DNA of 64,000 bases from Escherichia phage naswa: the sequence record MN850595.1. One strand, written 5' to 3'. Under the pieces are notes generated by a model. It was not told where the DNA came from. It saw only the letters and a list, made by a program, of their open reading frames with translations, and searched no databases. The position numbers and the translations under genes are program-made. Shown piece after piece: positions 6,733 to 60,219 of this stretch (position 1 is its first letter; each line of letters begins with the position of its first letter).

Positions 6733-7632
6733 ATGGCAAATCTTAACAGTTTTAGTACGCGGTGGAAACAGGACATAACAACCAATCTTTCAGCTGGGGA
6801 CATCCTTTCTGCAATTTACGAGGCTTTAGATGATAAAGCTACTTCAAAAGCGGTTTGTACCAACCCATTAATTCCTATAGTGATGAAGGTTATTGAGCGT
6901 AGATTGGTATCTGGGTCTGATAAGTGGACATATTTAGATAATGAAGGACACACCTATTCCAATGGGTATGTCGATATAAAAGTAGAATACGCGGTATCAT
7001 ACCGCCGGAGCGGTTCTGTAACTTTCAACTTCTCTGGAGGTTTTCGATCTCTGGCTACCTCACCTTTTGTTTCCTCAGAGGAGAAGTATGAGCTGCCATT
7101 TCTTTGGATGATGGCTAACGCGACAGGAAAAACCCCCGTTAGCATCCGAGTAAAATACAACTACAACGGATCTAGTAAGATCTATGCCGAAAGTGTCTCA
7201 GCAAGTTTTTATTTTGTGATGGGGGATGGAATCCTCAAACATATAAAGATGTGCGATATGCATGATGTTATAAATGAAGTGACTGATAAGAATGTTCTAG
7301 TGAAAGACCTCAACAATTTTTATACACCTGGAGACTATTACGTCAGCCGTCCACTGTGCATCTTTAATGCCGCACACCCTCTAGGTGAGTATTTGATCGC
7401 CAATAGCGATATTGCCAATAACCGCTTCGAGGTAGCAAGAGTTCAGAATGAGGTATTGACATCTTGCAAGAGCGGTGATAAGTTTACCGAAGAAGAGATG
7501 GGTGTTTTAGAAATGATGGGATATAAGTGTAGCCTTTGGGTAGATGAGGTGTTTAATGATTGCATCTATGGACAGGATATTTACCCATTAAAGAAGTATA
7601 CTGATACAAGTTTAATTTATGCGAGGGTTTGA
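6733..7632 (+). CDS. hypothetical protein
   Basis: Track ORF 299 aa; first gene of plus-strand arm. Confidence 0.5.
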   Translation: MANLNSFSTRWKQDITTNLSAGDILSAIYEALDDKATSKAVCTNPLIPIVMKVIERRLVSGSDKWTYLDNEGHTYSNGYVDIKVEYAVSYRRSGSVTFNFSGGFRSLATSPFVSSEEKYELPFLWMMANATGKTPVSIRVKYNYNGSSKIYAESVSASFYFVMGDGILKHIKMCDMHDVINEVTDKNVLVKDLNNFYTPGDYYVSRPLCIFNAAHPLGEYLIANSDIANNRFEVARVQNEVLTSCKSGDKFTEEEMGVLEMMGYKCSLWVDEVFNDCIYGQDIYPLKKYTDTSLIYARV

Positions 7633-7907
7633 CTATGATGAAGGCATGTGGTAATGTATATTACGTCGGTGAACATGTTCAGGCAGACAGTGTGTGGAAA
7701 TCTATTAAGTCCACCACTGACGATGCCTTTCTGAGTGGACTATGTTTCCCCAATCCGGGAGACATCCTCCCTCATCCTGGAGATTTTGTTGTCAACAAGA
7801 TGGACGGTTATACCGTGTGCCTGATGGTTGAAAAAATCTTTTTAGACACTAGACACAATCACCGTCTTGTGTTAAAATTTCAAGAATGTAAAATGACAAT
7901 TGCCTAA
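7629..7907 (+). CDS. hypothetical protein
   Basis: Track ORF 92 aa; ATGA overlap with upstream gene. Confidence 0.45.
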   Translation: MTMMKACGNVYYVGEHVQADSVWKSIKSTTDDAFLSGLCFPNPGDILPHPGDFVVNKMDGYTVCLMVEKIFLDTRHNHRLVLKFQECKMTIA

Positions 7908-7920
7908 GGAGACCTTACCG

Positions 7921-8277
7921 ATGTCTAAAGTTACTTATCGTGCAGCTATTTACTGCAATGAACACCCAATCAATAATGATGGTCACTGCCTTTTTAAAGA
8001 AAATCAATTGGGCTGTATTGTCCTCCCTGATGAAGGGGAAGGTTATCTGATTGCATTGACAGGGTTTGAACCTGAGGCTCTGGAAGCCAATCTGGACTAC
8101 CTGGTAGAAGAGGGTGCTGCAGACCTGGTTGCCAATGGCCTCTCCATAAGCCTTGACGAAGTAGAGCGCTTCATGGGCAATTACCGTGTAGTGCGTGAGT
8201 TTACTATCGAGGTGGAAACTCCCGAGTGGAGTAGCCATGAAACTAATGCCGAAGAAAAAGAAGAGGAGGTAGAATAA
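7921..8277 (+). CDS. hypothetical acidic protein
   Basis: Start moved to ATG 7921 (AAGGAG 8 nt upstream); N-terminus 'MSKVTYRA' repeated inside 5613..6656; Glu-rich C-terminus. Confidence 0.5.
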   Translation: MSKVTYRAAIYCNEHPINNDGHCLFKENQLGCIVLPDEGEGYLIALTGFEPEALEANLDYLVEEGAADLVANGLSISLDEVERFMGNYRVVREFTIEVETPEWSSHETNAEEKEEEVE

Positions 8278-8534
8278 TGAAAGTGCAGATCTTGACTAAT
8301 GCCGAGAAGATGTTTATTGAAGATACACCTTTTGAAGCTGGTGAGCTACAGTTCGTTTATTTTGTTGACTTAGATAAGGTGTTTCCTGCACTGAATCTAG
8401 GTTTGGATGAAGTTCCTCATAAGGTTTTGTGCCAAGTTGTTCGTGCCTTAGCGGCAGAGGGGGAGTTCCACACCCTTCAAGATGTCCAGACCTACGGGTA
8501 TCTTGAACTACAACGAGAAGAAGAGGTGGACTGA
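8277..8534 (+). CDS. hypothetical protein
   Basis: Track ORF 85 aa; ATGA overlap. Confidence 0.45.
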   Translation: MKVQILTNAEKMFIEDTPFEAGELQFVYFVDLDKVFPALNLGLDEVPHKVLCQVVRALAAEGEFHTLQDVQTYGYLELQREEEVD

Positions 8535-9231: not shown

Positions 9232-10415
9232 TGTCAAGAAACGTATTCGAAAGTGGTCAAATCACTGTCCGTGAGTTGCCAGCTATTATTCAGTTTGCCC
9301 AACGTCATAGCCGATCTGTCCTAATTTTGGGACCAATGGGTGTGGGTAAAAGCCAGGTGATGAAGCAGATCGCTGATAATATGTTCGGTGAGCGAGATGA
9401 CAACCTTGTTGACGTGCGACTGTCAGATAAAGATCCTGCCGACTTATCTGGGCTACCTATCCCTGTAGAAGCGGATGGAACTACACGTACAGTGTTTGCA
9501 ATTCCAGAATTTTGGCCTGCGGATCCTGACTGGAGCGGAATTATCTTTCTGGATGAGCTCACTCATGCAGATAACTACCTGCAAAAGGTTGCAATGCAAA
9601 TTATGCTTGACCACAAGTGCGGCACCTATGCATTCCCTAAGGGTTCTGTTTTTGTGGCTGCGGGTAACCGTTCTACAGATGGTGCGGTTCTTTCGGCGCT
9701 CGAAGCCCCTCTGGCTAACCGTTTTATCATTGTAGAGGTTACAAGCAATGCAGAGGTGTTTATTGAGGACTACGCATTCCTCAACGGGGTTCACTCCTCT
9801 GTAATTGGGTATCTGAAAAGAGTTCCATCAGCTATTGATAATTATGAGGCTATGGCTGAGATTAATTGTCCATCTTTTGCCACACCACGATCTTGGGTTG
9901 CTGCATCTGACATCTTGCACGATTTTGACAGCGGTATTATTTCTGACGCTATGGCCCGTGTTCTTCTGCAAGGTGCTATTGGTCACACTGCAGCGGTAGA
10001 GATCTGGACATACCACACCAAGAAACGCAATTTACCGGAAATCGGTCGGATTATGGCAGGTGGCTGCAAAGAATACGTAGGCCCTAAGCAGCCAGACATT
10101 TTGTGGATTCTTGGATCTGAAGGTTGTATCGCTATTCGTAATATGATGGAAAATGCAAGTATCTCAGACGAAGATCTTGTCAGCTGCGTGGCAAACTTCC
10201 TCGATTTCCTTTGGGAAAACTTCAAGGACGAGAACCGAGATTTTGTATTCTCAGTCTTTATGGCGATGATGAAACCTAATGCCTTAGGAAATGCCTTGCT
10301 TATCGGTAAAGGGCGTGACAAGATTGTTGCTCAGCTGATCAAAGCATACCCAAACCTGATGAAGATTGTAAAAGAGTTTGGTGAAGAGTTTAGCGCCATT
10401 TTGGCTAAAGCTTAA
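9231..10415 (+). CDS. MoxR-like AAA+ ATPase
   Basis: Walker A 'GPMGVGKS', Walker B-like 'IIFLDEL', ~390 aa single AAA module. Confidence 0.65.
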   Translation: MSRNVFESGQITVRELPAIIQFAQRHSRSVLILGPMGVGKSQVMKQIADNMFGERDDNLVDVRLSDKDPADLSGLPIPVEADGTTRTVFAIPEFWPADPDWSGIIFLDELTHADNYLQKVAMQIMLDHKCGTYAFPKGSVFVAAGNRSTDGAVLSALEAPLANRFIIVEVTSNAEVFIEDYAFLNGVHSSVIGYLKRVPSAIDNYEAMAEINCPSFATPRSWVAASDILHDFDSGIISDAMARVLLQGAIGHTAAVEIWTYHTKKRNLPEIGRIMAGGCKEYVGPKQPDILWILGSEGCIAIRNMMENASISDEDLVSCVANFLDFLWENFKDENRDFVFSVFMAMMKPNALGNALLIGKGRDKIVAQLIKAYPNLMKIVKEFGEEFSAILAKA

Positions 10416-10425
10416 GGGGGGTTGT

Positions 10426-10806
10426 ATGGCTAAAGTAGGTAAGCGGGGAAACTACCTGGTGGTATTGACCGAGGAGCCGGAGAAGGAGTACGAATGCAGC
10501 TCCACTTGCGTGATCGATATCCGAGAAAAAGATGTAGATGAAATCTGGTTTAAAATATTGGACGCTTGCGATAGCAGTGATTATTTCTTCATTTATGTCA
10601 ACGATAAGGCTGGATTCTTCCATGACGACGGAGAGTTGCCGTATGAAATCTATGAACTTGTAGAGGCTTGCCATCGTGGAGATGCGGAGTTGTTTGGCCT
10701 ACGGCTGAAAAGCGGTAAATTCTTCTATCAAGATGAGTGCATGAATCTTCATAACTTTGTAGAGGGAACTTGCAACGATGGAGAGATTTTGGCACACTAC
10801 GATTAA
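10426..10806 (+). CDS. hypothetical protein
   Basis: Start moved to ATG 10426 behind AAGGGGGG SD (track start 10378 overlaps the ATPase gene). Confidence 0.45.
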   Translation: MAKVGKRGNYLVVLTEEPEKEYECSSTCVIDIREKDVDEIWFKILDACDSSDYFFIYVNDKAGFFHDDGELPYEIYELVEACHRGDAELFGLRLKSGKFFYQDECMNLHNFVEGTCNDGEILAHYD

Positions 10807-10817
10807 TTTCTAAGACC

Positions 10818-10845
10818 TCCCCCGCTTCGGCGGGGATTTTCTATT
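10818..10845 (+). terminator. rho-independent terminator
   Basis: CCCCGC-TTCG-GCGGGG hairpin followed by ATTTTCTATTT. Confidence 0.55.
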
Positions 10846-10855
10846 TGGAGTCATT

Positions 10856-11356
10856 GTGAAAATTAAGATCTTTGCTATTATTTTGAGCGCACTTTTATCG
10901 CTGCCTGTTGTTGCAGCACCAAAACAAAAAGTATATCATACTTGCAAGCCCTCAGATACTAAGGAAAACATTCTGGCATGCAATATCTACAGGGAGGCTA
11001 GAGGGGATGGCACGATGGGTATGCTGGCATCAGGGTTTGCCACACTAAACAGGAAATCTCACCCCAAATACCCAGACACTATAAGAAAGATTGTCTACCA
11101 ACCTAACCAGTTTTCGTGGACAAACCACGGCAAAACTTTTAAGGTGACAGAAAAAGATTCATGGGATCACGCTAAAAGTCTTGCAAAGATGCTTCTAAAG
11201 GTCTATAATAACAACCATGTTGCATACATGGCTATGGACATAACAGGTGGAGCAACACACTACCATACAACCAAAGTACGACCGAAATGGGCAAAAAAGA
11301 TGCAGAGGACAGCTCAATTCGGGAGTCATATCTACTACAAGGAGCGCAATAAATGA
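10856..11356 (+). CDS. secreted SleB/CwlJ-like cell-wall hydrolase
   Basis: N-terminal signal-peptide-like segment; 'NIYREARGDG' and 'IVYQPNQFSW' resemble Hydrolase_2 signatures. Confidence 0.5.
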   Translation: MKIKIFAIILSALLSLPVVAAPKQKVYHTCKPSDTKENILACNIYREARGDGTMGMLASGFATLNRKSHPKYPDTIRKIVYQPNQFSWTNHGKTFKVTEKDSWDHAKSLAKMLLKVYNNNHVAYMAMDITGGATHYHTTKVRPKWAKKMQRTAQFGSHIYYKERNK

Positions 11357-15921: not shown

Positions 15922-16259
15922 GTTTGTGGAGAAATATCGTTAACTACGTGTGTGGCAATCCGACTCCTGAAGAGAAGGATGTTGTGATTCACGATTTTAC
16001 TAAAAGATCTCGTGAAAAAGATCTACTGCTAACAAAGGTGACTGATAAAGATCCTGCAGTAGGGGACTGGGCAGGTTTTGCGTTTACATCGGACAAATAC
16101 ACCTTTAACAAAGGTGACTACCTTGTTGTGGATTTTAACGAAGACATTGAGGGTGCTGAACCTTACTATCAAACCCTTATTGTTGCAGGGTGTGTTAATC
16201 TCTCTGCAGGTATGCACAGTTTGATTCTTTTTGAGCTTGACTCTGAAGACCTTGAGTAG
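15918..16259 (+). CDS. hypothetical protein
   Basis: Track ORF 113 aa; ATGA overlap with helicase stop. Confidence 0.45.
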   Translation: MSLWRNIVNYVCGNPTPEEKDVVIHDFTKRSREKDLLLTKVTDKDPAVGDWAGFAFTSDKYTFNKGDYLVVDFNEDIEGAEPYYQTLIVAGCVNLSAGMHSLILFELDSEDLE

Positions 16260-16320
16260 TAAGATGTGAGTATAAAGGGGAGGCACTCCTCCCCACAAAA
16301 ACTAAGGAGAGCACCAAACG

Positions 16321-17646
16321 ATGAGTAAAACCAAATTAGAACTAACCTGGATAGGTAAAAACGAGCGCAAAAAGTTAGAGCCGCACATTTTGTTAGAAGA
16401 TTCTAGCAAGTCTTACCACAGCCAGAAAGTGACCGAAAACGATATTTTTGATAATAAACTGATTTTTGGAGATAACTTATTAGCATTGAAGGCGCTAGAG
16501 CAAGAGTATGCAGGCAAAGTGAAGTGTGTTTACATAGACCCGCCATTCAATACCGGGAGGGCTTTTGAGCACTACGATGATAGCCTGGAGCATTCCATTT
16601 GGCTGGGCTTAATGAGGGATAGGTTAGAAATAATTCGTAATCTTCTAAGTGATGATGGGGTAATATTCGTTCACTTAGATGATTGCGAAATGGCGTATTT
16701 AAAAGTTTTGATGGACGAGATTTTTGGTCGTGCAAATCAGTTAAATACCATATCGATGACCACAAATTCCCCTTCGGGATTTAAGGCAACAGGAGCCACA
16801 GTTTTCTCCACAGCAAACTTTTTGCTTGTATATGCAAAAGATCGCACCCAGAAACCGCTTAATAAAATCTATATACCTAAAGGGTACGATACAGGATATA
16901 ACAAATACCTATTAAACCCGGATGACCATTATAAAAATTGGACGTGGTGCAGTATTGCCGATGCGTTTGCAAAGGCCAATGGCTATAAGGATGCAAAAGA
17001 AGCCAAGAAAAAACTGCCTGACACATTCGATGATGAATTAGCACAATTCGCAATTGATAATGCAGAACGTGTATTTCAATCTGTTGCAATTGGTGGTGGT
17101 GCTAAAATAAAGAGAAAAGAAACTATCGAGAAGTCAAAGAAAGATAGGGATAAGGTTTATGTACATCCAAATGAGGATGTTGAAGGATTTTATATCGCAA
17201 ATGGTAGGCAAATGGTCTTTTACTCCAATAGGCTTTTGGAAATTGACGGTGAGATGCAACCTGCGGAACTAATAACTGATGTTTGGACAGACATTAGTTG
17301 GAATGGAATAGCAAATGAAGGCGGCGTTAGTTTCAAAAATGGGAAAAAACCAGAAGCGCTTTTGAAGCGGATTTTCGAAATGTGTACGCGAGAAGGCGAT
17401 TTGGTATTGGATTCATTCGGTGGTTCGGGAACTACTGCTGCTGTAGCTCACAAGATGAAAAGACGTTGGATCTCAATCGAGCTAGGTGATCATTGTCATA
17501 CCCATATTATTCCGCGCTTGGAAAAAGTGATCGATGGCGAAGATCAAGGTGGTATTTCTAAGTCTGTAAGCTGGCAAGGTGGTGGTGGCTTCCGTTATTA
17601 CAAACTCACCCCGGCCTTAGTTGCGAAAGATAAGTCTGATCAATAA
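16321..17646 (+). CDS. DNA methyltransferase, beta-class amino-MTase (N6-adenine or N4-cytosine)
   Basis: Catalytic 'DPPF' motif precedes SAM-binding 'FGGSGTT' (motif IV before I). Confidence 0.75.
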   Translation: MSKTKLELTWIGKNERKKLEPHILLEDSSKSYHSQKVTENDIFDNKLIFGDNLLALKALEQEYAGKVKCVYIDPPFNTGRAFEHYDDSLEHSIWLGLMRDRLEIIRNLLSDDGVIFVHLDDCEMAYLKVLMDEIFGRANQLNTISMTTNSPSGFKATGATVFSTANFLLVYAKDRTQKPLNKIYIPKGYDTGYNKYLLNPDDHYKNWTWCSIADAFAKANGYKDAKEAKKKLPDTFDDELAQFAIDNAERVFQSVAIGGGAKIKRKETIEKSKKDRDKVYVHPNEDVEGFYIANGRQMVFYSNRLLEIDGEMQPAELITDVWTDISWNGIANEGGVSFKNGKKPEALLKRIFEMCTREGDLVLDSFGGSGTTAAVAHKMKRRWISIELGDHCHTHIIPRLEKVIDGEDQGGISKSVSWQGGGGFRYYKLTPALVAKDKSDQ

Positions 17647-17659
17647 AGAGTACAATCAA

Positions 17660-17965
17660 ATGATGAAACGTTATAAACCATACACTTTTGAAATCGATTT
17701 CGAACTTGACGATATGTTCACTGTGGAAGCTCAGGCAGTTGTCCAGTTGCCAGACCCAGAGTGTCGTGATTCTGATGTTGACTATTATGGATTTAGACAG
17801 ATCACTGATGTGCATGTTTACCACAACGGTGAAGAGGTGGACTTCCACCAATTGCCAAACGATATGCGCCACTCAATTTACAAACGTGCAGCCCGTGAAC
17901 TAGAGTCCTATCTGGATGCAGCGACGACAGCAGCTGCATTTGCTGAAGAAGTGGGAGGTTTCTGA
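17660..17965 (+). CDS. hypothetical protein
   Basis: Track ORF with start moved to first ATG downstream of the MTase stop. Confidence 0.4.
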   Translation: MMKRYKPYTFEIDFELDDMFTVEAQAVVQLPDPECRDSDVDYYGFRQITDVHVYHNGEEVDFHQLPNDMRHSIYKRAARELESYLDAATTAAAFAEEVGGF

Positions 17966-18360
17966 TGATTACAGGTGTGAAGATTATCCAATACCACTTA
18001 ACCAAATTGGAAGATGCTGAAAAAGAGCTTGCAGAAGTTCTAAATAGTGGATATACTTTGCTATCATGCGCCTGCTCAGACACCTACGCTGTGTGGACAC
18101 TTATCCGGAAGGAGGAGCCTGCAGGGATCTTGGTGCCAAACCCTAAGATTATCAGTGAAGTGGATGACTGCTCTCAGGACGGCCTGTCAGAAGACTGGGA
18201 AGCATGGGAAGGTGGTGAAAACCCTGCACCAGGTAAGTGGGTAAAATACAAACTACGTAGCGGTGCACAGCACGCTGGATACTCTGATAACCTGGACTGG
18301 AGTCATTCTTCACCGGAATCATTGGTAAGTGCATATGATATCGTTGCTTTTCAGGAATAA
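17965..18360 (+). CDS. hypothetical protein
   Basis: Track ORF 131 aa; ATGA overlap. Confidence 0.45.
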   Translation: MITGVKIIQYHLTKLEDAEKELAEVLNSGYTLLSCACSDTYAVWTLIRKEEPAGILVPNPKIISEVDDCSQDGLSEDWEAWEGGENPAPGKWVKYKLRSGAQHAGYSDNLDWSHSSPESLVSAYDIVAFQE

Positions 18361-18372
18361 GGAGAGAGTGTT

Positions 18373-18855
18373 ATGTCAGATTTTATGTGGAAAGTAGGTT
18401 ATGCCTCTCCTGAAATGTGCGAGGCTTGCTTTGTAAAAATAGGCCGCGAGGATATTGACAAAGTGATCTTTAAGTTTCGTGATGTATCTGTGATCGGCAA
18501 CCGAGTGCTTAAGCACTTAAAGAATCTGAAGCTCACCAAAAAGAAGTTCTTCGGACTTTTCGAAGAGAAAGTTGATGCTTGGACCCATTGCATTCAGGAA
18601 GCTAAATCTCACTACAGTGCTATCGTTACCCCAGAACGGGTAGCCAAGATGGAAGGATTCATCAACAGCACAGAGTTTGAGTGCCTAAAGGCTGCCCTTA
18701 ATAGTTATCCAAAGTGCCTCAAACACCTTGACAAGTATGTAGAAAAGGATGGGGAAATGTATCTCACCCTGGACGCATATTATGAGATGCAAGAAATTTT
18801 AAATTTAGATTTGACATTGGTATCCACCGAGTATACAATAGGTATCCGGGTTTAA
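18373..18855 (+). CDS. hypothetical protein
   Basis: Track ORF 160 aa; AGGAGAGAG SD upstream. Confidence 0.5.
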   Translation: MSDFMWKVGYASPEMCEACFVKIGREDIDKVIFKFRDVSVIGNRVLKHLKNLKLTKKKFFGLFEEKVDAWTHCIQEAKSHYSAIVTPERVAKMEGFINSTEFECLKAALNSYPKCLKHLDKYVEKDGEMYLTLDAYYEMQEILNLDLTLVSTEYTIGIRV

Positions 18856-18861
18856 CACTAG

Positions 18862-18888
18862 GCCCTGCCCGAAAGGGTGGGGCTTTTT
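18862..18888 (+). terminator. rho-independent terminator
   Basis: GCCCTGCCC-GAAA-GGGTGGGGC hairpin (G-U pairs) then TTTTT; same hairpin at 29008. Confidence 0.6.
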
Positions 18889-18906
18889 GCATTAGGAGAC
18901 AGCAAA

Positions 18907-19671
18907 TTGAAATTTATCTACAAAGAACACTACCACAAAGGTGTTGTGTGGAGTCTATTTGACGGGTCTGGTGGTGCAGTCATTGACTGGGCAAAAGCTG
19001 GGTACCTGTGCCTGTGCTTTAATGCAGAAGGCGCTGATCACGGCAGTTATGCAGAGGTTATAACCGATCATCCCAACATTCACTATGTGGATTATTGGAT
19101 TGACCCATGGTTCCCTCAGGAAACTTTTTGCATGTACCCAGCTCCAGACTTTATTCTTGCATTTCCTCCGTGCACGCATTTAGCGGTATCAGGTGCTGCA
19201 CATTTTAAGAAAAAGCTGGCTAAGGACCCTCTGATCCAAATTAATGCCGTAAAGGATGCTCGGGTTGCGGAAGAGCTGGGAGAGATTTACGATTGCCCGT
19301 GGCATGTAGAGAATCCTGTGGGTGTTATGTCCACACTGTGGCGCAAACCTGATTACCGTTTTCATCCTTCTGACTATGGTGGGTATTTACCGGAGGATGA
19401 TGTAAACCCTTGGTTTCCTGAATTTATAGCTCCACGTGATGCCTATCCAAAAATAACTTGCGGCTGGATAGGTAATGGATTTATAATCCCGCCCACAAAA
19501 CCTGTCCCGCAAATAGTTGACGCGGTTAGCGGGTATTCTATGCAACACGCCAAGCTGGGTGGAAAGAGTGCAAGAACGAAGATGATTCGAAGTCTCACAC
19601 CACGTGGCTGGGCAAAAGCCGTATTCTTAGCAAACGAGCCTGTAGTAAGGAGCAGAATTAATGGGAAGTAA
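18907..19671 (+). CDS. putative C5-cytosine DNA methyltransferase-like protein
   Basis: 'FDGSGG' (FxGxGG-like), 'FPPCTHLAVSG' (PC motif) and 'VENPVG' (ENV-like); start placed at TTG 18907 after terminator with TAGGAGA SD. Confidence 0.4.
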   Translation: MKFIYKEHYHKGVVWSLFDGSGGAVIDWAKAGYLCLCFNAEGADHGSYAEVITDHPNIHYVDYWIDPWFPQETFCMYPAPDFILAFPPCTHLAVSGAAHFKKKLAKDPLIQINAVKDARVAEELGEIYDCPWHVENPVGVMSTLWRKPDYRFHPSDYGGYLPEDDVNPWFPEFIAPRDAYPKITCGWIGNGFIIPPTKPVPQIVDAVSGYSMQHAKLGGKSARTKMIRSLTPRGWAKAVFLANEPVVRSRINGK

Positions 19672-21739
19672 ATTTATGGCATCTGCATACAACCGTTTCG
19701 GTGAGCCAAACCCGAAAGCAACTAAGTATAAAAGTGGGGGGAGTGTGAAACGAGACTATCGTGATGAAAAAGAAGTTGAAACTGTAGAGACTGTTTTAGA
19801 AAATACTAAAATTGTCCCTGTCCCACAACAAAATATCGGTCTGATGGCTGCACAATATTTTGGTGTGCGATCAGCATTGTCCCAAGAAGACGGTGTGACA
19901 GTCACTGCAACATATTTCCCATATTACGACCGCTACGGAAATCTGTCTGGTTTCAAAAAGCGTGACTGGACTATTCCTAAAGAGCAAAGGGGCCATTTCT
20001 CCGTTGTTGGCATCGTAAAGGCCAACTCCCAGATGTTTGGTCAAAAGCTGTGTGCATCTTCCAACAACCGTAAGCAGATTAACGTTTGTGAGGGAGAAGG
20101 TGATGTTATTGCAGCATGGCAGGCTGCATATCAGATACAAGTAAAAGGGATTCTCACCAACGCTAAAGCCCCGGCAAAGGTGAAGCAGTGGGCTAAAGAG
20201 GTCCAGGACGGGATCGACGCAGTTATCAACGGTGGTGATCTGGCAGGAAAACCCTGCCTGCCTTTTGTTGGAATTAACTGTGGATGTGCAAACGCAGTAG
20301 ATACTTTTGCAAACAATGAGAAGTTTATCCGTAGCTATGGAACAGTTGTGCTGGCAATGGATAACGATGCAGCTAACGAGGTAGAGAAGCAAAAACACGT
20401 CATTAAAGGTGTTGAGGCCACGCACAATATCGCAGCATTTTTGATGTCTGATAACGTTTACCACGTAGAATACCCCGGTGAAGTAAATGACCCTGACGGT
20501 GTAAAAGATATCCGAGACATGCTGAAGGCTAAAAAGCTGGAAGATATTGTCAACATGTTCCGGCACCCTGTTAAATATGTGCCTGATGCTGTGTCGGATT
20601 TAGAAGACTTCTCTATCGAGTCTTTGCGGAAAAAGACTTCCAACGGGGTAGATATCAGTGCAGAGTTCCCAAAACTGCAAAAAATGCTAAAAGGCTTGCA
20701 CAAAGGGACACTTGTAATGCTTACAGGTCCATCAGGCGGCGGTAAAACAACCGTGGCTAAAAAACTGGAACACTGTATTGCAAGATACCTAATGGACCCG
20801 ACATGCCCGAAGGCCGATGACTATGAAGAGGATGATCGTCTATGCATGATCCATCTTGAGGAGGATCCAGAGGAAGCAATTAACTCCTTGTATGCAAACC
20901 AGTTAGGGTTTGATGTTAAAGAGTTTGTTGAAGATCCTAGCCAGTTTTTAACTGATCAAGAACACGCAGAGATTCACCAATCATGGGCAAAAGCTGGAAA
21001 AATCAAAGTGTTCAAACATTTCGGGTCTATTCCGGTGGACGAGTTGATTACCAAGCTTAAGCAAATGGTTTGCCTGTACCATTGTCGTTATATTGTGCTG
21101 GATCACCTGTCCATGGTAATTTCAGGGCTTAATGTTAAGGATGAGCGAAAAGAACTGGACATGGCTATGACCCAACTGGCTGCGTTTTGTAAGCAGTTTA
21201 ACGTGTTTATCTTGGTGATCGCTCACCTCAAACGTACAGAGATTGTGCCCCCTAAGGACAAGGATGGTAACCCATTACCTTTCTGGTATCCTGTGCGAAA
21301 AGAGAATTTGCGAGGATCGGCTGGGCTTGAACAGTTGAGTTGGGTAGTCATAGGTGTCGAGGCCGAAGAAATGGTGGATCGTTCTCGTGGACGTGTCCGT
21401 CTGGTAGGTCTTAAAAACCGTCCAGCAAAAACTTTAGGTATTGCTGACACTTTAGTTATGGATCCGCATACAGGTAAGTTCCATGATGCCAGTAATTGGT
21501 ACTGGGACAAAGAAATGCAGATGTTCACAGACGGAGAAGGTGGGGAGGTTGTTTGGAGACCTCAGGCTATGTTTGAGGATCAGGAGCATGCAGTTGTAGA
21601 AACACCTATGGGCAAGGTTGTGGCTGATAAGGTTGTAACACCCACTGTCAAGCCTATTGACACGCAGGAAGACCTCCAATACGATGATCCATCCTCTGAT
21701 CCGGTCCCTGGTTTTGAGGATGATGAAACACCTTTTTAA
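19661..21739 (+). CDS. DNA primase-helicase (TOPRIM + DnaB/gp4-like helicase)
   Basis: Acidic TOPRIM-like 'CEGEGD'; Walker A 'GPSGGGKT', Walker B 'IVLDHL'; acidic C-terminal tail '...FEDDETPF'. Confidence 0.75.
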   Translation: MGSKFMASAYNRFGEPNPKATKYKSGGSVKRDYRDEKEVETVETVLENTKIVPVPQQNIGLMAAQYFGVRSALSQEDGVTVTATYFPYYDRYGNLSGFKKRDWTIPKEQRGHFSVVGIVKANSQMFGQKLCASSNNRKQINVCEGEGDVIAAWQAAYQIQVKGILTNAKAPAKVKQWAKEVQDGIDAVINGGDLAGKPCLPFVGINCGCANAVDTFANNEKFIRSYGTVVLAMDNDAANEVEKQKHVIKGVEATHNIAAFLMSDNVYHVEYPGEVNDPDGVKDIRDMLKAKKLEDIVNMFRHPVKYVPDAVSDLEDFSIESLRKKTSNGVDISAEFPKLQKMLKGLHKGTLVMLTGPSGGGKTTVAKKLEHCIARYLMDPTCPKADDYEEDDRLCMIHLEEDPEEAINSLYANQLGFDVKEFVEDPSQFLTDQEHAEIHQSWAKAGKIKVFKHFGSIPVDELITKLKQMVCLYHCRYIVLDHLSMVISGLNVKDERKELDMAMTQLAAFCKQFNVFILVIAHLKRTEIVPPKDKDGNPLPFWYPVRKENLRGSAGLEQLSWVVIGVEAEEMVDRSRGRVRLVGLKNRPAKTLGIADTLVMDPHTGKFHDASNWYWDKEMQMFTDGEGGEVVWRPQAMFEDQEHAVVETPMGKVVADKVVTPTVKPIDTQEDLQYDDPSSDPVPGFEDDETPF

Positions 21740-28992: not shown

Positions 28993-29007
28993 CATCTAGT
29001 TAACATA

Positions 29008-29035
29008 GCCCTGCCCGAAAGGGTGGGGCATTTTT
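29008..29035 (+). terminator. rho-independent terminator
   Basis: Same GCCCTGCCC-GAAA-GGGTGGGGC hairpin as at 18862, followed by ATTTTTG. Confidence 0.6.
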
Positions 29036-29054
29036 GTATAAGGAGATCTGAAAA

Positions 29055-29471
29055 ATGACATTAGAAGATATCATTGTTAAGCCTGAGAACTATGACCAAT
29101 ACAACCTGTCAACTCAATCTGTAGACCTTGGATGCGCCACGGTCAGTGCGTGGCTGGTTAACGGAAAAGAGCTGGATAAATGCTTAGAAGCTCACATGTC
29201 TATTAACAAGTTTCTGGATGAAAATACTCACTGGCTTGAGGGTGCAGGCGTATATGCTTCATGGTTGGATAGTATGGGATTCGACTACCAATCTGAAGAG
29301 GGGTGGTGGAGCTATTTAGCTATCTGTCCAGAGACGCTACAATGCTTCATGAAATATTCTGAAGATTTGGAGTACCGGGCGGTGGTTGATAGTGCTATTG
29401 CCCGTTATAGCCGTAAACCTTTTTCCCACGACATTAAAACTGTGGAAGAATTTGTTGAAGTTTTCTGTTGA
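29055..29471 (+). CDS. hypothetical protein
   Basis: Track ORF 138 aa; AAGGAGA SD. Confidence 0.5.
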   Translation: MTLEDIIVKPENYDQYNLSTQSVDLGCATVSAWLVNGKELDKCLEAHMSINKFLDENTHWLEGAGVYASWLDSMGFDYQSEEGWWSYLAICPETLQCFMKYSEDLEYRAVVDSAIARYSRKPFSHDIKTVEEFVEVFC

Positions 29472-29567
29472 CACAGATTGAAAGGTGTGCAATTATAACT
29501 TCATAGAACGGGAGGACGTGATGAACGAAGAAAACTGGGATGTATAACTAACAGGAGGCCACTGCCC

Positions 29568-29765
29568 ATGATTTATCGAATCCGTGTAAGAGAAGATGCA
29601 CCAGGCTGTTACTTTGACTGGCGTGGGTGGTGGTTTATCCACCCAATGGATGGACTCACAGATAGAATGCTGGATGCTGCCCTTTACACAGATACCGACA
29701 TAGAATATAATCTCTATCTGAAGGACGGTATAGATAACGGCCTGTTTGAAGCAATTCCTGTGTAA
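29568..29765 (+). CDS. hypothetical protein
   Basis: Track ORF 65 aa; CAGGAGG SD. Confidence 0.4.
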   Translation: MIYRIRVREDAPGCYFDWRGWWFIHPMDGLTDRMLDAALYTDTDIEYNLYLKDGIDNGLFEAIPV

Positions 29766-44349: not shown

Positions 44350-44367
44350 TTTTTTAACTGAATTATC

Positions 44368-44393
44368 AAGGGGCTTAGGCCCCTTTCTTTTTG
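44368..44393 (+). terminator. rho-independent terminator
   Basis: AAGGGGC-TTAG-GCCCCTT hairpin then TCTTTTTG. Confidence 0.6.
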
Positions 44394-44399
44394 TCTGCT

Positions 44400-46840
44400 C
44401 TTCCCCCCCTACCATAAACGGCCCTACCTGGCAAGTGGAATAATTGACGAGCCATCAATCCCACACACTGTACAAATATACATGGAAAATAACTATTGCA
44501 TAATTTTTCATTGTGTGGTAGCAAGGCCATTTTTACCCGTTTTACCTTCCAAAATTGCACGTAATGCCGCTATTGCACAAATTTTAACCTGATGCACATC
44601 TCCAATATCTTGTCAACAACTAAAAATCTTTATAAGTCATGCACTTACATAACCACAAAAGCGTGTTCTACGTGAAAAATCGAGTATAACTATAGCCGCC
44701 AGATCTCAGAATTTACGTACGCTCACCAGTCTATAGCCTGCTAAGTATTTATTCCAACCATAGAATAACGGAATAGTCAATACCTGCATAAAATAATTAT
44801 TCGTGTAAACTGCATAACATAAATCGGCTAGGATGTCAACATTTTTCGTAAACAGCTCGAAATTATAACGGTGAGTTATAATAAACAGAGAAATCTTTAG
44901 TCGTCTAATGTTTACTGTACATTACTATACTGACTGGAATCATTAGATGACTAAGAGAAAGATAAGAAATCATTAACAATGCAATTGTTTTATTCGTAAC
45001 AATAAGGCAACTATGCAAACGAATGGCATGGCGCGACGGAGTCGCGACATAATATAAAAGCAGTAACCATCACCCCCGTGATAGTTTGTCTGCAAACTAT
45101 TAATCAGATCATAGTTGCCTTGTATTTAGTTAATCATGACATAACAAGCAGGGCAACTATAGATCTGCTAATAGTTGCCCTGCTTTTATATTATGTCATG
45201 CTAATTATAATCAGTGCGATTATTGTCATGTATAATTATTGTCATGCAAACGAATGGCATGGCTGATTATCGGTGTGTAAACAGTCAATCATGTAAATGG
45301 TTAGCATGTGAACAATCAGGAATGTAAACAATCCAGTGTGTAAACTAATAGGTGTGTAAAAGTGTCATGTTGTGTCAGTTAGGTCACATTATGTCAGACA
45401 AGTTTTTCTCCTCTTTGTCAAGTGCTGCATGAAAAATTTACAAGCTTGTATGGTAGCATTTTTGCGGCCCTGTTTACATTCAGGAGTGTATGTATAATCC
45501 TTGGTGTGTGGGCGTTTAGACGTCTAGACGGTTGGAAGTATGCAGGTCAATATCTAATCTATTGGCTGCTAACTATATCCCACACAAATGATAAGAAATA
45601 TAATTGTTATATGCGTAAACTGTAACTCATGTTATCAATCCCTGTATGTATCGCCAGTGGTGCGCATAATGGGTATTATGTTAAATTGCCCGTAATGATA
45701 ACTATTCTCACAATGATAGGTATTCTCATTCACCCCCACAAGATAGGTTGCAAATGTTGTGCCACTGTGTGAACGGCCTAGCCTATTAATTTGCCTCACT
45801 GCCTTGATATTTGAGAATTGTTATAAGAATGAGAAGTATTCCCATTTCGTCCGCCTGGCAGCACTCCAGTCGCTACCGGCTCCTGACAGGGCAGCTCTCC
45901 TGTAGGTCAGGTCAAAATCGTGGTAGAATTGGGCCTATTCAGATATTTCTGGCTGACTCTTCAGGTCTGTGTGAGAAAAGCCAACCTTTCCGGCGGCGGG
46001 GAGGGGTCAATTAAAAAATTTACGTGGTGTATGAAGCGCTCTTCAGGTAAGGCAGGTATTATGTGATGAAACCCTCTTCAGGCAATGATATTTGTGGGTG
46101 TGATATTTGCTGGAAAGCCAGATATGACGGGACTCCCGGCGGGGCAGGGGTAGTACAGACAGGGAAAATATGGGGGATGTAGTTGGGGAAATTGATCAGG
46201 CAGGTAGAGTATGGAATATGTTACAAGTATGTTAAATATGGAGGTTGAATATCTGCAGGATTTGTGTGTAAAATCAAAGACTTAAGTGGTGTTGTGGTAT
46301 TTTCTATAAATAATTCAAGTTTAATAGGTAATATTTGTCTCTATCCACTTTGTGTGGTAAACAGATTCAGATGAAATTGGTTTACAAGTGTATACATAAT
46401 ATACAAATTAAAGATACAAGAAACCCCCCTCCCCCTTCGGCTACCATTCACCTTTTCCTCTGACTGGTACTTAAACACTTATTCAGACTCTTCAGGTTAT
46501 CACCCATATATCATATGGCAGTGACTGGTGTCCTCCGGCCCCTCTTTCGTCACCCGTCCGCTTCGCCATGCTAATGCCATAGCCAATGGTTCGGTTGTTC
46601 ACCCTGTTCACTCAGGTGTATCTCCATACCCCTTCAAACCGAAGAGAACAGAAAACCCGAATTACTCGGTAAAAGAAAAGAGAAGAACTTAATTTTATCA
46701 GGATAGGCAAGAATGTCAAGGCATGACTGCTCACTAAACAAGCAAACAGTCATGTGTGGTAGGTAAGTGATTGTGGTGGTAGGAAATTTAGTTGAAAGAT
46801 GTGTTATAGGTGCGCTTCCAGCACTTTAGCCGGGCAGCTA
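44400..46840. other. ~2.4-kb non-coding convergence region with several repeat families (candidate origin / packaging / terminus region)
   Basis: No long co-directional ORF; 20-bp direct repeat at 45013 and 45244; ATAGTT(G/T) palindromes 45082-45182; six TGTAAAC-like iterons 45276-45361; CTCTTCAGG x5 from 45957. Confidence 0.5.
45276..45361. repeat. six iteron-like repeats (TGTAAAC core, 14-17 bp period)
   Basis: Cores at 45276, 45293, 45307, 45323, 45339, 45355. Confidence 0.5.
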
Positions 46841-46848
46841 ATTGTGTG

Positions 46849-47064
46849 TCAGTCTAGCGGTTCATCCTCTACTTCACTGAAATCAATGTTCATGGTCTCT
46901 TCCCAACCATCGATCTCAGCACAAGAGTGGAGTTCTTTAGGGTTTACTCCCAAAGCCTCAGCAACAGAGTCTATATTTAACACCTCTGGCAGGTATGATT
47001 CATCGAATTCAAGGTAAATCAGGCCACGAGTGTTGTCAGCTCCACCAAATATCTCTATCTTCAT
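46849..47064 (-). CDS. hypothetical small protein
   Basis: Track ORF 71 aa; starts MKIEIF like other small proteins on this arm. Confidence 0.45.
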   Translation of the reverse strand: MKIEIFGGADNTRGLIYLEFDESYLPEVLNIDSVAEALGVNPKELHSCAEIDGWEETMNIDFSEVEDEPLD

Positions 47065-57629: not shown

Positions 57630-58031
57630 TTACTGAACAGAGCGCGGGGCTAGGAAGGATAACTCTTCTAAAGAGAAGATTTCATTTCCTACCACCCAAG
57701 TTGCTGGATCATCTGGGTCAACAGGCTGGATAATCATTACCTCATCCGCCTCGCACACACGTTTCCCACCTATAGTAGCGGAGTCAGCCACTAGCATACG
57801 AGGCTCTTCAGAAATGCACAGGTAACCTCCTCGGCCCACTGTTCCTTCCACAGGATCCTGCCCTTTGACCACAATGAATACCTTCTCTCCTGTGGCGATA
57901 TTACTTTGCACACTAACAGTTTGACCAACTTTAGATGTACCGATCTTGGTGGCTTCAAACATTAAATCCCGAATTACTGTTGCATAGTTGCCGGACACTT
58001 TCTTACCTTCTTTAGTAATCTCAATCTTCAT
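57630..58031 (-). CDS. hypothetical protein
   Basis: Track ORF 133 aa; MKIEITKEG start. Confidence 0.5.
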   Translation of the reverse strand: MKIEITKEGKKVSGNYATVIRDLMFEATKIGTSKVGQTVSVQSNIATGEKVFIVVKGQDPVEGTVGRGGYLCISEEPRMLVADSATIGGKRVCEADEVMIIQPVDPDDPATWVVGNEIFSLEELSFLAPRSVQ

Positions 58032-58303
58032 AATCTAGGCTCCTTAAATGAATCTATGTAATCAATTAAATCCCAAGCATCGCGATGGGCTGTCAGAGGG
58101 TATACTTCTCCGAGAGGGATCATAGCAATAAGTCTATCAAAAACCCAGTCTGGACGCAACATTTTATGGTGATATTCCCACTCACCTTCCACAGATTTTT
58201 TCTGAGTGATCAGGATCTCTGTGTAGTGTTTCGACTGTCTTGAGTAGATTGAAAATGACTTGTACATAAATGACCCCCTCTTGTTGAAAACAACAATACA
58301 CAA
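58028..58303 (-). CDS. hypothetical protein
   Basis: Track ORF 91 aa; ATGA overlap. Confidence 0.5.
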   Translation of the reverse strand: MCIVVFNKRGSFMYKSFSIYSRQSKHYTEILITQKKSVEGEWEYHHKMLRPDWVFDRLIAMIPLGEVYPLTAHRDAWDLIDYIDSFKEPRL

Positions 58304-58588
58304 CTACCAGGTTACTGTCAAGTAGGCAACCGTATTATTTTTCTCTGGGGAGATGCCAACAACATCTACCTGCAGACCTCCTGCCCTTAAATCTCCAACA
58401 ATGTGCGGGAAGTAATCTGAGAGATGCGATGGTAGATTTATCGAAAATCCGCACCCCAGAAAGCCTGCTAACGCTTTATTTTGTATCTCCCCTACAATCG
58501 CATCATAAATAGAGTTAAGCTCGTCAGGAAGCGTTACAGGACGTTTTAGCGCTAACTGGTGTAATTTGTCCTTAGCACTCATTTTCAT
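58304..58588 (-). CDS. hypothetical protein
   Basis: Start moved to ATG 58586-58588 overlapping upstream stop (ATGA); track start 58618. Confidence 0.45.
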   Translation of the reverse strand: MKMSAKDKLHQLALKRPVTLPDELNSIYDAIVGEIQNKALAGFLGCGFSINLPSHLSDYFPHIVGDLRAGGLQVDVVGISPEKNNTVAYLTVTW

Positions 58589-59118
58589 TTCAGGTCTACC
58601 TCTGGAGGTGCCAACCACATAAATGGCGGCAAGTCTAAACGGTTTTTCTTATCCCAGACAAAATATGCATATGCTTGCCCGTCAGTTCTGCCATTTGATT
58701 GAAAAGATGGACGCTTAGATATTGTGATCACAGTGGTAGGTGCATTATCAAGCCACCATTCAAATCTGGCTTTGCTTTCCAGAAAATTAAGACGCAAAAG
58801 CATAATAACTACGTCAGCATCTTTCAACGCCTTGTCTACAAACTCACGAGCCAAACTGTATGGTGGGTTGGTGATAATACAGTCAACATGGTTGTATTCT
58901 GTATTCAGATAGTCAACACCTTCTTGGATTTCTCCCCATGCAGATCCTAACGGCATACGTGAGTAGAACACACCTGAGGCACTATTCCTGCAAGGCTCTA
59001 AATAGGTCCAGTCTTCTGGGAACGGAATAAGGTCATACAGCCCTTCTGCACACCACTCCGGTGTCACATACTCATCGTAAGCGTTACGTTGTTCATCAGG
59101 TTTTCTAGCACAAGTCAT
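58585..59118 (-). CDS. small N6-adenine DNA methyltransferase (phage Dam-like)
   Basis: 'TNPPYS' catalytic motif; upstream 'YVTPEW...LEPC' segment as in compact phage Dam-type MTases; 177 aa. Confidence 0.6.
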   Translation of the reverse strand: MTCARKPDEQRNAYDEYVTPEWCAEGLYDLIPFPEDWTYLEPCRNSASGVFYSRMPLGSAWGEIQEGVDYLNTEYNHVDCIITNPPYSLAREFVDKALKDADVVIMLLRLNFLESKARFEWWLDNAPTTVITISKRPSFQSNGRTDGQAYAYFVWDKKNRLDLPPFMWLAPPEVDLK

Positions 59119-59127
59119 GCAAATCTC

Positions 59128-59160
59128 CAGATCATAAAAGCCCTCCGAAGAGGGCTTTAG
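59128..59160 (-). terminator. rho-independent terminator (minus strand)
   Basis: AAAGCCCTC-TTCG-GAGGGCTTT hairpin followed by TTTTAT on minus strand. Confidence 0.5.
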
Positions 59161-59169
59161 AATTAATGT

Positions 59170-60219
59170 TTAAGCTTCTTCGACAATTCCTGCACCCAGG
59201 ATTTTTTCATTGAGCTCTTTTGCTGTTTTAATAATATTGTCCACCAGACGCTTGCGAGTCTTATCTTTTACCTTAACCTCTTCACCGCCGTTCAGGGTTG
59301 TCTTCAATTGGGACAGAATGTCTTGAAGTTCAACGACAGAGAATCGCTGCAGATCTTCTGAAGTAATCTCACTCAGGGCAATTCTGACGGTCTCGCCACT
59401 TTCCATCTGCAGATTCAGGAACACAGTGTGAACATCACCTTTCGAACCACCCGCTTTTGCAGATTCAACAGCATGAACTAACTCATCTAAAGATGTGCAC
59501 TGGTGAATCTCCGGAAGACCTGCTTCACCTAACACGCCTTCTTCATCACCTTTTGCCAGAAGCTTTTTCGGTTTTTGTCCGTTCTGGATGCGTTGTATGT
59601 TGCCTTCATCCAGAATAATAGCTCCAGTGCGTGCTGCCAGCTCTTCTCCGTCCAACCACACTTCGCCACCAGCTGTGATGGATGCGATCTCATCTTCTGT
59701 CAGCACCCCACCGTAGTATTTTTCGATCAGGCGTTCAAAACGTTTTTTCCAGTAGCTGACCTGAGTATTCATGTTCACACCGTTACCATAAGTGCCACCT
59801 TGATAGTAGTGGAACATAAACTCTGTGTCCGGAGCCACAGTACGTTCTTTACAACCAAGCCATAAGATTGTTCCAGCAGAGCAGCACATCCCTTCAGCAT
59901 GTGCAACAACGCTTGCCTGAGACTCTCGGAATGCCTGCAGATAAGCCATTGCAATGTGCACGCAACCCCCAGGGCTATTGATGATCACCCGAATGCTTTC
60001 TTCCGGCTGAGCCATACGGATCGTCTGCAGACGAGACATATGATCTTGTAAGTCTTCCAAATCGTCGATATAAAGAACGTGGTCAACAACAGGTGTTGGG
60101 TAGCTGTATGTTTCCATGATACCGCCCGGCATACCAAACATTTTATTACTCATAGGTTCGAAACCGTTCTGTTTTTCTTTCATGCCGTGTACCATGGTTC
60201 TGCGAGGTGTTAAATTCAT
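59170..60219 (-). CDS. ClpP/S14-like serine peptidase with C-terminal extension
   Basis: 'VIINSPGGCV' and 'GMCCSAGT' resemble ClpP oxyanion/Ser regions; ~150-aa extra C-terminal region. Confidence 0.6.
   Translation of the reverse strand: MNLTPRRTMVHGMKEKQNGFEPMSNKMFGMPGGIMETYSYPTPVVDHVLYIDDLEDLQDHMSRLQTIRMAQPEESIRVIINSPGGCVHIAMAYLQAFRESQASVVAHAEGMCCSAGTILWLGCKERTVAPDTEFMFHYYQGGTYGNGVNMNTQVSYWKKRFERLIEKYYGGVLTEDEIASITAGGEVWLDGEELAARTGAIILDEGNIQRIQNGQKPKKLLAKGDEEGVLGEAGLPEIHQCTSLDELVHAVESAKAGGSKGDVHTVFLNLQMESGETVRIALSEITSEDLQRFSVVELQDILSQLKTTLNGGEEVKVKDKTRKRLVDNIIKTAKELNEKILGAGIVEEA

Follow-up and report, generated by a model that had tools for sequence, protein, structure and literature searches.

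Background

Methyltransferase (MTase) genes are frequent in phages. Among gut phages, 34% encode an MTase and, of these, 28% have more than one; for 59% of the enzymes there is a bacterial homologue with over 90% identity (PMC10477858). The orphan adenine MTases M.EcoGII and Hia5/Hin1523, borne by phages or prophages, are thought to be broadly protective (PMC5778455, PMC3299994). In the type III restriction–modification (R-M) system EcoP15I, the MTase domain of the modification subunit (Mod) ends at residue 516, and a C-terminal domain (CTD, residues 539–644) makes extensive contacts with the restriction subunit (Res); the Mod2 dimer, formed via the N-terminal domain (NTD) and the MTase domains, is a stand-alone methyltransferase (PMC4490356). 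Here, we describe three MTase genes of Escherichia phage naswa, located in a stretch of 64,000 nucleotides from sequence record MN850595.1 (hereafter the window, meaning the whole stretch analysed), and in particular the first of them, MTase1, whose closest relatives are the Mod subunits of type III systems.

Three methyltransferase genes in one Vequintavirus genome

The window derives from the genome of a Vequintavirus (rV5-like myovirus) and carries the following MTase genes:

16321–17646, plus strand: MTase1, 441 aa, beta-class N6-adenine-type MTase, a predicted type III Mod without the C-terminal (Res-contacting) domain
18907–19671, plus strand: MTase2, 254 aa, minimal C5-cytosine-type MTase, whose stop overlaps the ATG (19661) of a primase/helicase gene
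58585–59118, minus strand: MTase3, 177 aa, gamma-type NPPY amino-MTase core, directly downstream of a ClpP-like protease gene (59170–60219)

A first-pass annotation, made from the sequence alone, had listed three MTases of different classes, all orphan, and had proposed that together they provide layered self-methylation as anti-restriction or, alternatively, multi-site epigenetic marking. The three reading frames are indeed real and lie where it had placed them. In themselves they are not new, being annotated already in more than 100 GenBank relatives; in phage DrSchubert of the BASEL collection, for instance, MTase1 and MTase3 are each labelled ‘putative N6 adenine methyltransferase’ and MTase2 ‘Dcm-like C5 cytosine methyltransferase’. 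What is new is that MTase1 is, on sequence evidence, a near-identical copy of a specific Escherichia coli type III Mod without its nuclease-docking part.

The orphan status of the three genes was borne out. No neighbouring open reading frame (ORF) matched the PADLOC nuclease models, no ResIII or REase_III protein was detected among the neighbours, and the annotation of the collinear DrSchubert region holds the three MTases only, with no restriction nuclease. The helicase encoded upstream was considered as a possible Res and rejected, as it is a PIF1-like superfamily 1 helicase. To judge from their distribution in sequenced phages, the three MTases have separate histories, with MTase1 as an accessory insertion and MTase2 and MTase3 near-universal in the genus.

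MTase1 and its chromosomal counterpart

MTase1 belongs to the beta class, as had been proposed. Its motif IV (VYIDPPF, with DPPF at aa 73–76) stands approximately 290 residues ahead of motif I (FGGSGTT, aa 366–372), and Pfam PF01555 (N6_N4_Mtase) is matched above its cut-off (E = 3.8e-42; 145.2 bits versus 26.7). The PADLOC profile MTase_III (PDLC03636) is matched with an E-value of 2e-204 over positions 2–444 of 575, and the best matches in the PDB are type III Mods (6k0w, 1.3e-28; EcoP15I 4zcf, 2.2e-24). MTase1 is thus assigned to the type III Mods by Mod profiles, by structures and by a 96%-identical Mod encoded beside a Res. Two features of a complete system are missing: profile positions 445–575, corresponding to the Res-contacting CTD, are unmatched, and no res gene adjoins MTase1. 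Characterised type III Mods (EcoP15I and EcoP1I) produce N6-methyladenine (m6A); this ancestry, together with the DPPF motif, suggests m6A as the product of MTase1 as well.

An exact-sequence cluster look-up placed MTase1 in one 90% cluster with chromosomal E. coli proteins of 567–568 aa, and MTase1 is 96% identical at the amino acid level to residues 1–439 of the 567-aa E. coli Mod P0242. Of 5426 complete E. coli genomes, 24 contain the host mod gene (95% DNA identity to MTase1), in every case on the chromosome, and no K-12 strain is among the mod-bearing genomes listed. In two such genomes, mod lies in a defence island adjoining the tRNA-Sec gene, in the order helix-turn-helix (HTH) protein, 964-aa SNF2/DrmD-like protein, AbiD, 206-aa hypothetical protein, 568-aa Mod and intact 912-aa Res. 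The island Mod matches PADLOC MTase_III end to end (7e-285), and the island Res matches both REase_III (9e-191) and Pfam ResIII. When the whole window was compared by blastn with the island of E. coli 2014C-3011 (L003, 3115–12464), a single match was obtained, at 94% identity:

16308–17655, plus strand: putatively captured mod segment, defined by blastn homology to the E. coli tRNA-Sec island, with its ends 13 nt ahead of the ATG and 9 nt past the stop of MTase1

Compared with the host gene, phage mod displays an 11-bp deletion at approximately codon 441, and the resulting frameshift leads to a TAA three codons further on. Past this stop, homology to the host gene continues for approximately 20 nt in another frame (INKEYN) and is lost where the next phage gene starts. 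The GC content of the segment is 40.3%, versus approximately 45.5% in its flanks. Full-length forms of 560–600 aa are the family norm in many bacterial groups (58–76% identity), while mod at 90% identity or above occurs in 87 phage records, all of them Vequintavirus, the next phage match having at most 45%. For these two reasons, the short phage form is probably derived, and a transfer from host to phage is the economical reading.

The position of the truncation is consistent with a protein that would still work. In a profile alignment, the stop of MTase1 falls at approximately residue 523 of EcoP15I Mod, and all catalytic motifs, the whole MTase domain and the recognition domain are retained. 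By positional alignment, the phage protein would therefore keep all that is needed to dimerise, recognise a site and methylate it, and would lack the Res-docking region. In sequence, the C-terminal region of the host Mod itself does not detectably resemble the EcoP15I CTD. Between phage and host mod copies, the synonymous divergence (dS) is 0.19 and the ratio of non-synonymous to synonymous divergence (dN/dS) is 0.094; only three substitutions fall at residues 180–340, the recognition domain of about 150 residues. These values indicate that MTase1 is kept functional under purifying selection, very probably with the specificity of the host system.

Two observations concern the putative donor and a relative. 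The HTH protein of the donor Mod–Res island is mad1-like. In an unrelated contig (L012, 4985–10112), a 65%-identical Mod of 442 aa (P0345) again has an SNF2 protein and a 186-aa protein encoded ahead of it, and its neighbour on the other side is a TnsA-like nuclease-domain protein in place of Res. P0345, which looks bacterial, was considered as a further phage capture and rejected, since it sits in this SNF2–hypothetical–Mod–TnsA-like cluster. The SNF2 and small proteins may be functional parts of these Mod systems.

Junctions and distribution of the mod segment

The segment is bounded by two features of the phage sequence:

16277–16294, strand not assigned: GC-rich, terminator-like hairpin (GGGGAGG-cact-CCTCCCC), located after the upstream ORF and ahead of MTase1, and kept at empty sites
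17663–17965, plus strand: downstream phage gene, with its start as annotated in DrSchubert, whose ribosome-binding site (RBS)/ATG region forms the right junction of the insertion

In junction alignments, phage HeinrichReichert represents the empty site, with the downstream gene directly after the hairpin and RBS and no MTase1 between. Approximately 31 of 116 Vequintavirus records (about 27%) lack exactly this segment of approximately 1.34 kb, including the BASEL phages HeinrichReichert and AlexBoehm. Presence and absence even occur within one species, V. murica, in which Murica carries MTase1 and HeinrichReichert does not. The MTase1 ORF is intact over its 441 aa in more than 80 records, and the BASEL phages that carry MTase1 include DrSchubert, JeffSchatz and JohannBauhin.

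The frame overlapping the downstream gene (ORF 17621–17965) was examined as the missing CTD of Mod in a split gene. This was rejected because only a 12-residue, out-of-frame remnant (INKEYN) matches; beyond it, the product of 17663–17965 showed no significant similarity to residues 440–567 of the host Mod. The same ORF (phrog_4240) weakly matches two ‘DNA methyltransferase’ families, phrog_1573 (2e-5) and phrog_2060 (0.008).

In FV3-type phages, the ORF ends at nearly the same residue via a different right junction. There (2190–2345 of the FV3 sequence L006 versus window 17575–17680), host homology ends at KDKF and gives way to a diverged duplicate, approximately 95 bp long, which comprises the end of the upstream gene (LDSEEDLE and its stop), the hairpin and the RBS. 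The junction seen in the window keeps 20 more host nt, after the 11-bp deletion, than does the FV3 type. The two junction types reflect either two captures or a later rearrangement.

A truncated Mod also occurs in a second phage lineage. The metagenomic phage contig L014 (SRR16894903) encodes at 7001–8335 a truncated Mod of 444 aa with an almost identical recognition domain, located at another locus, between PhoH and ClpP. Its gene order (NrdD, NrdG, PhoH, ClpP) is Vequintavirinae-like, and it shares no other DNA similarity with Vequintavirus. Since the same truncated architecture has been kept repeatedly (L014 and the FV3 type), against a family norm of 560–600 aa, these comparisons suggest that the truncation itself was selected. 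In L014, nrdD is represented by three distinct gene calls, which genes with HNH domains flank directly on both sides.

The two conserved methyltransferases

MTase2 is of the C5 type, as the first-pass annotation had held, although the window protein matches no family in Pfam or NCBIfam. It matches phrog_757 ‘DNA methyltransferase’ at 6e-87 and is also a member of a family of more than 3500 proteins of approximately 230 aa. The catalytic cysteine context, on which that annotation had made its assignment depend, is present: in 42 homologues, P87-P88-C89 and E135-N136-P137 are invariant, as is most of the IRSLTPRG-type motif X, and F18/G20/S21/G22 (FDGSG) is at least 90% conserved. PF00145 is reached by five of the 42 relatives (best E 1.3e-6), the window protein itself staying below the Pfam cut-off. 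An AlphaFold (AF2) model, with a mean predicted local distance difference test score (pLDDT) of 87.7, has the DNMT3A/3B catalytic domains as its best PDB match in Foldseek (E 6e-7 to 1e-4; template modelling score about 0.5), and the prophage C5 MTase 3g7u was also matched. Sequence searches of the PDB with MTase2 and MTase3 gave nothing significant.

By tblastn, MTase2 was found in 1503 phage records, including Drexlerviridae, Dhillonvirus, Klebsiella siphoviruses and other Vequintavirinae genera, and in unrelated phages its relatives often lie beside helicase genes. Because its stop overlaps the primase/helicase start, MTase2 is probably translated together with that gene, which suggests expression with the replication genes. 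An alternative GTG start at 18877 is open and lies inside a terminator hairpin. A consensus scan, which yields pattern matches only, returned the following upstream of MTase2:

18811–18885, plus strand: sigma-70-like promoter TTGACA-17-TACAAT (18811–18839), then terminator-like hairpin (18860–18885)

This order, a promoter followed by a strong terminator just upstream of MTase2, is odd.

MTase3 had been described as a compact, NPPY, Dam-like enzyme. The compact size (177 aa) and the NPPY motif hold, but the likeness to Dam does not: the motif order X-I-IV is that of the gamma class, unlike E. coli Dam, and the protein does not match PF02086 (Dam/D12, alpha class). The order X-I-II-III-IV, the NPPY motif and the catalytic fold are all those of gamma enzymes, with M.TaqI as the best fold match for the class. 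MTase3 matches phrog_799 at 8e-67. T-N-P-P is invariant among its homologues (NPPY in the window protein, T-N-P-P(Y/F) overall), which also keep D-x-Y-x-T-P, E-P and several later positions. We take the arrangement of D-x-Y-x-T-P and E-P-C to mirror motifs X and I of M.TaqI-type enzymes.

The family likenesses of MTase3 in Pfam (EcoRI_methylase, PF05869, Eco57I) are all sub-threshold. It scores 19.2 bits with PF05869 (cut-off 28.1) and 16.1 with TIGR01712 (cut-off 97), and 16 of 50 relatives reach PF05869 at E ≤ 0.01; the relation to these phage ‘Dam’ families therefore appears distant at best. Overall, the 50 homologues match EcoRI_methylase (21), PF05869 (16), Eco57I (8), N6_Mtase (2) and RrnaAD (1). 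The structural model consists of a single Rossmann domain, with no separate target-recognition domain (TRD).

MTase3 occurs in 543 phage records and is at least 99% identical in 108 of them. Within Vequintavirinae, it stays just after the ClpP-like protease gene; in L014, the slot after ClpP (9999–10886) is occupied by a PF02086 Dam-type MTase instead. Distant homologues lie on phage-like contigs without nucleases. Both the family matches in hidden Markov model (HMM) searches and the Dam-type gene in the L014 slot favour DNA, as m6A, over RNA or protein as the substrate of MTase3. Next to it, an ORF of 94–104 aa (58304–58618, minus strand; phrog_12158) overlaps the 3′ end of MTase3 by approximately 34 nt, and in a distant phage contig (L010), an 88-aa ORF directly follows the MTase3 homologue. 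The product of 58304–58618 is a candidate partner of MTase3.

Role of the three enzymes

Vequintavirinae were described as ‘exceptionally susceptible’ to six R-M systems, namely EcoKI, EcoCFT_I, EcoRI, EcoRV, EcoP1_I and EcoCFT_II (BASEL, PMC8594841). The panel comprises these six systems, and the type III system of the tRNA-Sec island is not among them. As Vequintavirinae are susceptible to all six, the notion of a ‘layered’, broad protection is contradicted, and any protection is narrow rather than a general shield. An m6A mark within an EcoRI or EcoRV site blocks cleavage; since both enzymes still restrict Vequintavirinae, an efficient non-specific adenine methylation by MTase3 is unlikely. 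Short-motif statistics did not point to a target either. In the window, CTAG and GTAC are depleted, GATC has an observed/expected ratio of 1.02 and CCWGG occurs 138 times; no target motif could be deduced from these palindrome and short-motif counts, and neither GATC nor CCWGG is avoided.

Of the earlier proposal, the anti-restriction part is thus well supported for MTase1 only, in that MTase1 copies a Mod with an identified Res. We consider it reasonably probable that the window encodes three independent orphan MTases, of which MTase1 is a captured host mod fragment giving narrow and cognate-specific protection. In this scenario, a mod fragment of the type III system of the E. coli tRNA-Sec island would have been captured by the phage and cut just before the CTD. 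By analogy with Mod2 alone in EcoP15I, the truncated Mod would dimerise and methylate the same asymmetric site as the host system. Progeny DNA, pre-modified in any host, would then escape the type III system at the next infection, which is the usual rationale for orphan methylases in phages, and the loss of the CTD would keep the phage protein from recruiting Res. MTase2 would probably put 5-methylcytosine (m5C) on replicating phage DNA at a short motif, and MTase3 would most likely make m6A in DNA, either with low or unusual specificity or with the help of a recognition partner. For MTase1, pre-emptive methylation against one type III system is the most likely role, because it is a near-identical copy of a Mod with an identified Res, has kept its recognition domain and evolves under purifying selection.

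Several points weigh against this account. EcoP15I, the model for Mod activity without a CTD, shares only the conserved motifs with MTase1. The GC content of the insert (40%) is atypical both for the phage flanks and for the E. coli island, and the stretch of approximately 30 nt that precedes the E. coli mod start resembles the phage RBS region; this likeness could be recombination microhomology, which we prefer, or a trace of flow from phage to host. MTase2 and MTase3 give no visible protection in the six-system BASEL panel, and the fold of MTase3 is nearly as close to ribosomal RNA (rRNA) m6A methyltransferases as to M.TaqI. Finally, no methylome or restriction-digest data for rV5-like phages were found in the searchable literature.

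Other explanations were weighed. MTase2 and MTase3, and possibly MTase1, could serve phage physiology rather than anti-restriction, by labelling DNA that is replicated or ready for packaging, setting the timing of transcription or telling phage DNA from host DNA, and Dam-dependent packaging in P1 is a precedent for such a role. Consistent with it, conservation of MTase2 and MTase3 extends over Vequintavirinae genera with hosts in Escherichia, Klebsiella, Cronobacter, Pectobacterium, Proteus and Erwinia, and these hosts have different R-M repertoires; the strong conservation of MTase3 (at least 99% identity in 108 records), the overlap of MTase2 with the primase/helicase start, the frequent helicase neighbours of its relatives and the missing R-M protection in BASEL point the same way. 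However, no regulated site or motif enrichment was found (the non-avoidance of GATC and CCWGG being uninformative), MTase1 has an obvious cognate restriction system, and BASEL covers only six systems, outside of which the cognate ones may lie; we hold a purely physiological role to be unlikely. Somewhat less likely still, in our view, is that MTase3 acts in host take-over not on DNA but on RNA (rRNA or transfer RNA m6A) or protein (HemK-like glutamine methylation). NPPY is also found in HemK-type and some RNA m6A enzymes, the protein at 177 aa has no TRD, the top Foldseek match is an archaeal DIMT1 and one Vibrio phage homologue is annotated ‘dimethyladenosin transferase’; yet DNA enzymes dominate the family matches of the 50 homologues (RrnaAD just one), a D12 Dam-type DNA MTase fills the slot after ClpP in L014, and the N-terminal D-x-Y-x-T-P and E-P-C presumably resemble motifs X and I of M.TaqI-type enzymes.

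Two further explanations concern MTase1 alone. Beyond self-methylation, a Mod devoid of its CTD could, in a cell with the cognate type III system, form heterodimers with the host Mod or compete with it for sites, giving some Mod2 complexes unable to dock Res and hence a dominant-negative poisoning of the system. The dimerisation surfaces, 96% identical to those of the host Mod, and the seemingly selected truncation (L014, the FV3 type and the family norm of 560–600 aa) fit this mechanism, to which we nevertheless give a low probability. Lower by far is that of MTase1 being a relic without function, left by a chance recombination with host DNA and passively carried. Such a remnant would accord with the frameshifting 11-bp deletion, with the lack of MTase1, to no obvious effect, in about a quarter of the genus and with one record (typing phage 14) in which the gene is split into two ORFs. 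Against it stand a dN/dS of 0.094 at a dS of 0.19, which denotes long-term purifying selection, the 441 aa intact in more than 80 records, the retention of the catalytic motifs and whole MTase domain, the equally truncated form in a second phage lineage (L014) and the FV3-type ORF ending at nearly the same residue via a different junction.

Three orphan MTases in an rV5-like phage are ordinary in themselves; the value of the narrow-protection reading lies in a testable case of a restriction arms race. A type III system present in approximately 0.4% of complete E. coli genomes would be matched by a phage counter-gene encoding that system's Mod minus the docking domain, and MTase1 is present or absent among otherwise near-identical public phages (BASEL DrSchubert with, HeinrichReichert without). 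This pairing lets the host-range gain from one captured methylase be measured directly, would reveal which site an uncharacterised type III system recognises and is relevant when Vequintavirus strains are selected for phage therapy or for biocontrol of Shiga toxin-producing E. coli. MTase2 (254-aa C5) and MTase3 (177-aa NPPY core) belong to very large uncharacterised phage families and are cheap to characterise.

Source genome and relatives

Positions 16000–20000 of the window are 100% identical to Escherichia phage magaca and positions 58000–59500 to phage inoa, and more than 110 further Vequintavirus records match window regions at 90–99%. DrSchubert is collinear with the window except for a homing-endonuclease gene missing from the latter; this ‘putative homing endonuclease’ gene of approximately 640 bp (28996–29635 in DrSchubert) is cleanly absent at window position 28988 or thereabouts.

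Among the matching GenBank records, 16–52 (MG0656xx) are named ‘Campylobacter phage’ (C12, C5, A142 and others), many of them giving C. jejuni as host. Those listed are 97–100% identical to E. coli Vequintaviruses across the matched regions, and their Campylobacter labels look doubtful.

Where the plus-strand and minus-strand gene arms meet (44350–46850), approximately 2.5 kb hold no ORF longer than 72 aa. This region also lacks annotation in DrSchubert, and its GC content falls to 0.34 at 44500–45000. Neither a tRNA nor an Rfam match at E ≤ 0.1 was found in it, and one weak 18-bp tandem repeat lies at 45694–45728. It could be a regulatory or origin region.

Comparison with known systems

Compared with the gamma-class enzymes M.TaqI, HsdM and CamA, MTase3 lacks a C-terminal or inserted recognition domain; unlike E. 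coli or T4 Dam, it is not of the alpha class; and its HMM scores with the phage ‘Dam’ families PF05869 and TIGR01712 are all below the curated cut-offs. M.EcoGII (beta class, 349 aa) and Hia5/Hin1523 (alpha class, 281 aa) differ from it in class and size, and both carry a TRD region. A kinship of MTase3 with Hia5 or M.EcoGII was accordingly rejected on class and size.

MTase2 shares with C5 MTases (PF00145; M.HhaI, M.HaeIII, DNMT3A/3B) the FxGxG, PC and EN(V/P) motifs and a motif-X-like RS(L/W)(T/S)P. However, it belongs to a phage-specific family (phrog_757) of only approximately 230–254 aa, with PCT in place of PCQ, ENP in place of ENV and a recognition region that is very small.

MTase1 shares with type III Mods (EcoP15I, H. 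pylori Mod, WP_024226319) the beta motif order, DPPF and FGGSGTT, and the NTD, MTase and TRD parts. It lacks the last approximately 127 aa of the E. coli Mod WP_024226319, whose Res is WP_024226320, and the phage has no res gene. Strains with WP_024226319 include 2014C-3011, SMN152SH1 and CFSAN004176. MTase1 sits in the replication module of a lytic phage.

A classical precedent is lactococcal: phage phi50 reportedly captured a functional part of the LlaI methylase encoded on plasmid pTR2030 (Hill et al. 1991). As there, and as in other phage orphan MTases, a near-identical methylase of the host species is found in a lytic phage without its nuclease. The present case differs in that the donor would be a type III system and the copy is cut precisely before the predicted nuclease-docking domain. 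It also differs in the presence/absence polymorphism within one genus and in the equally truncated form found at another locus in a second phage lineage.

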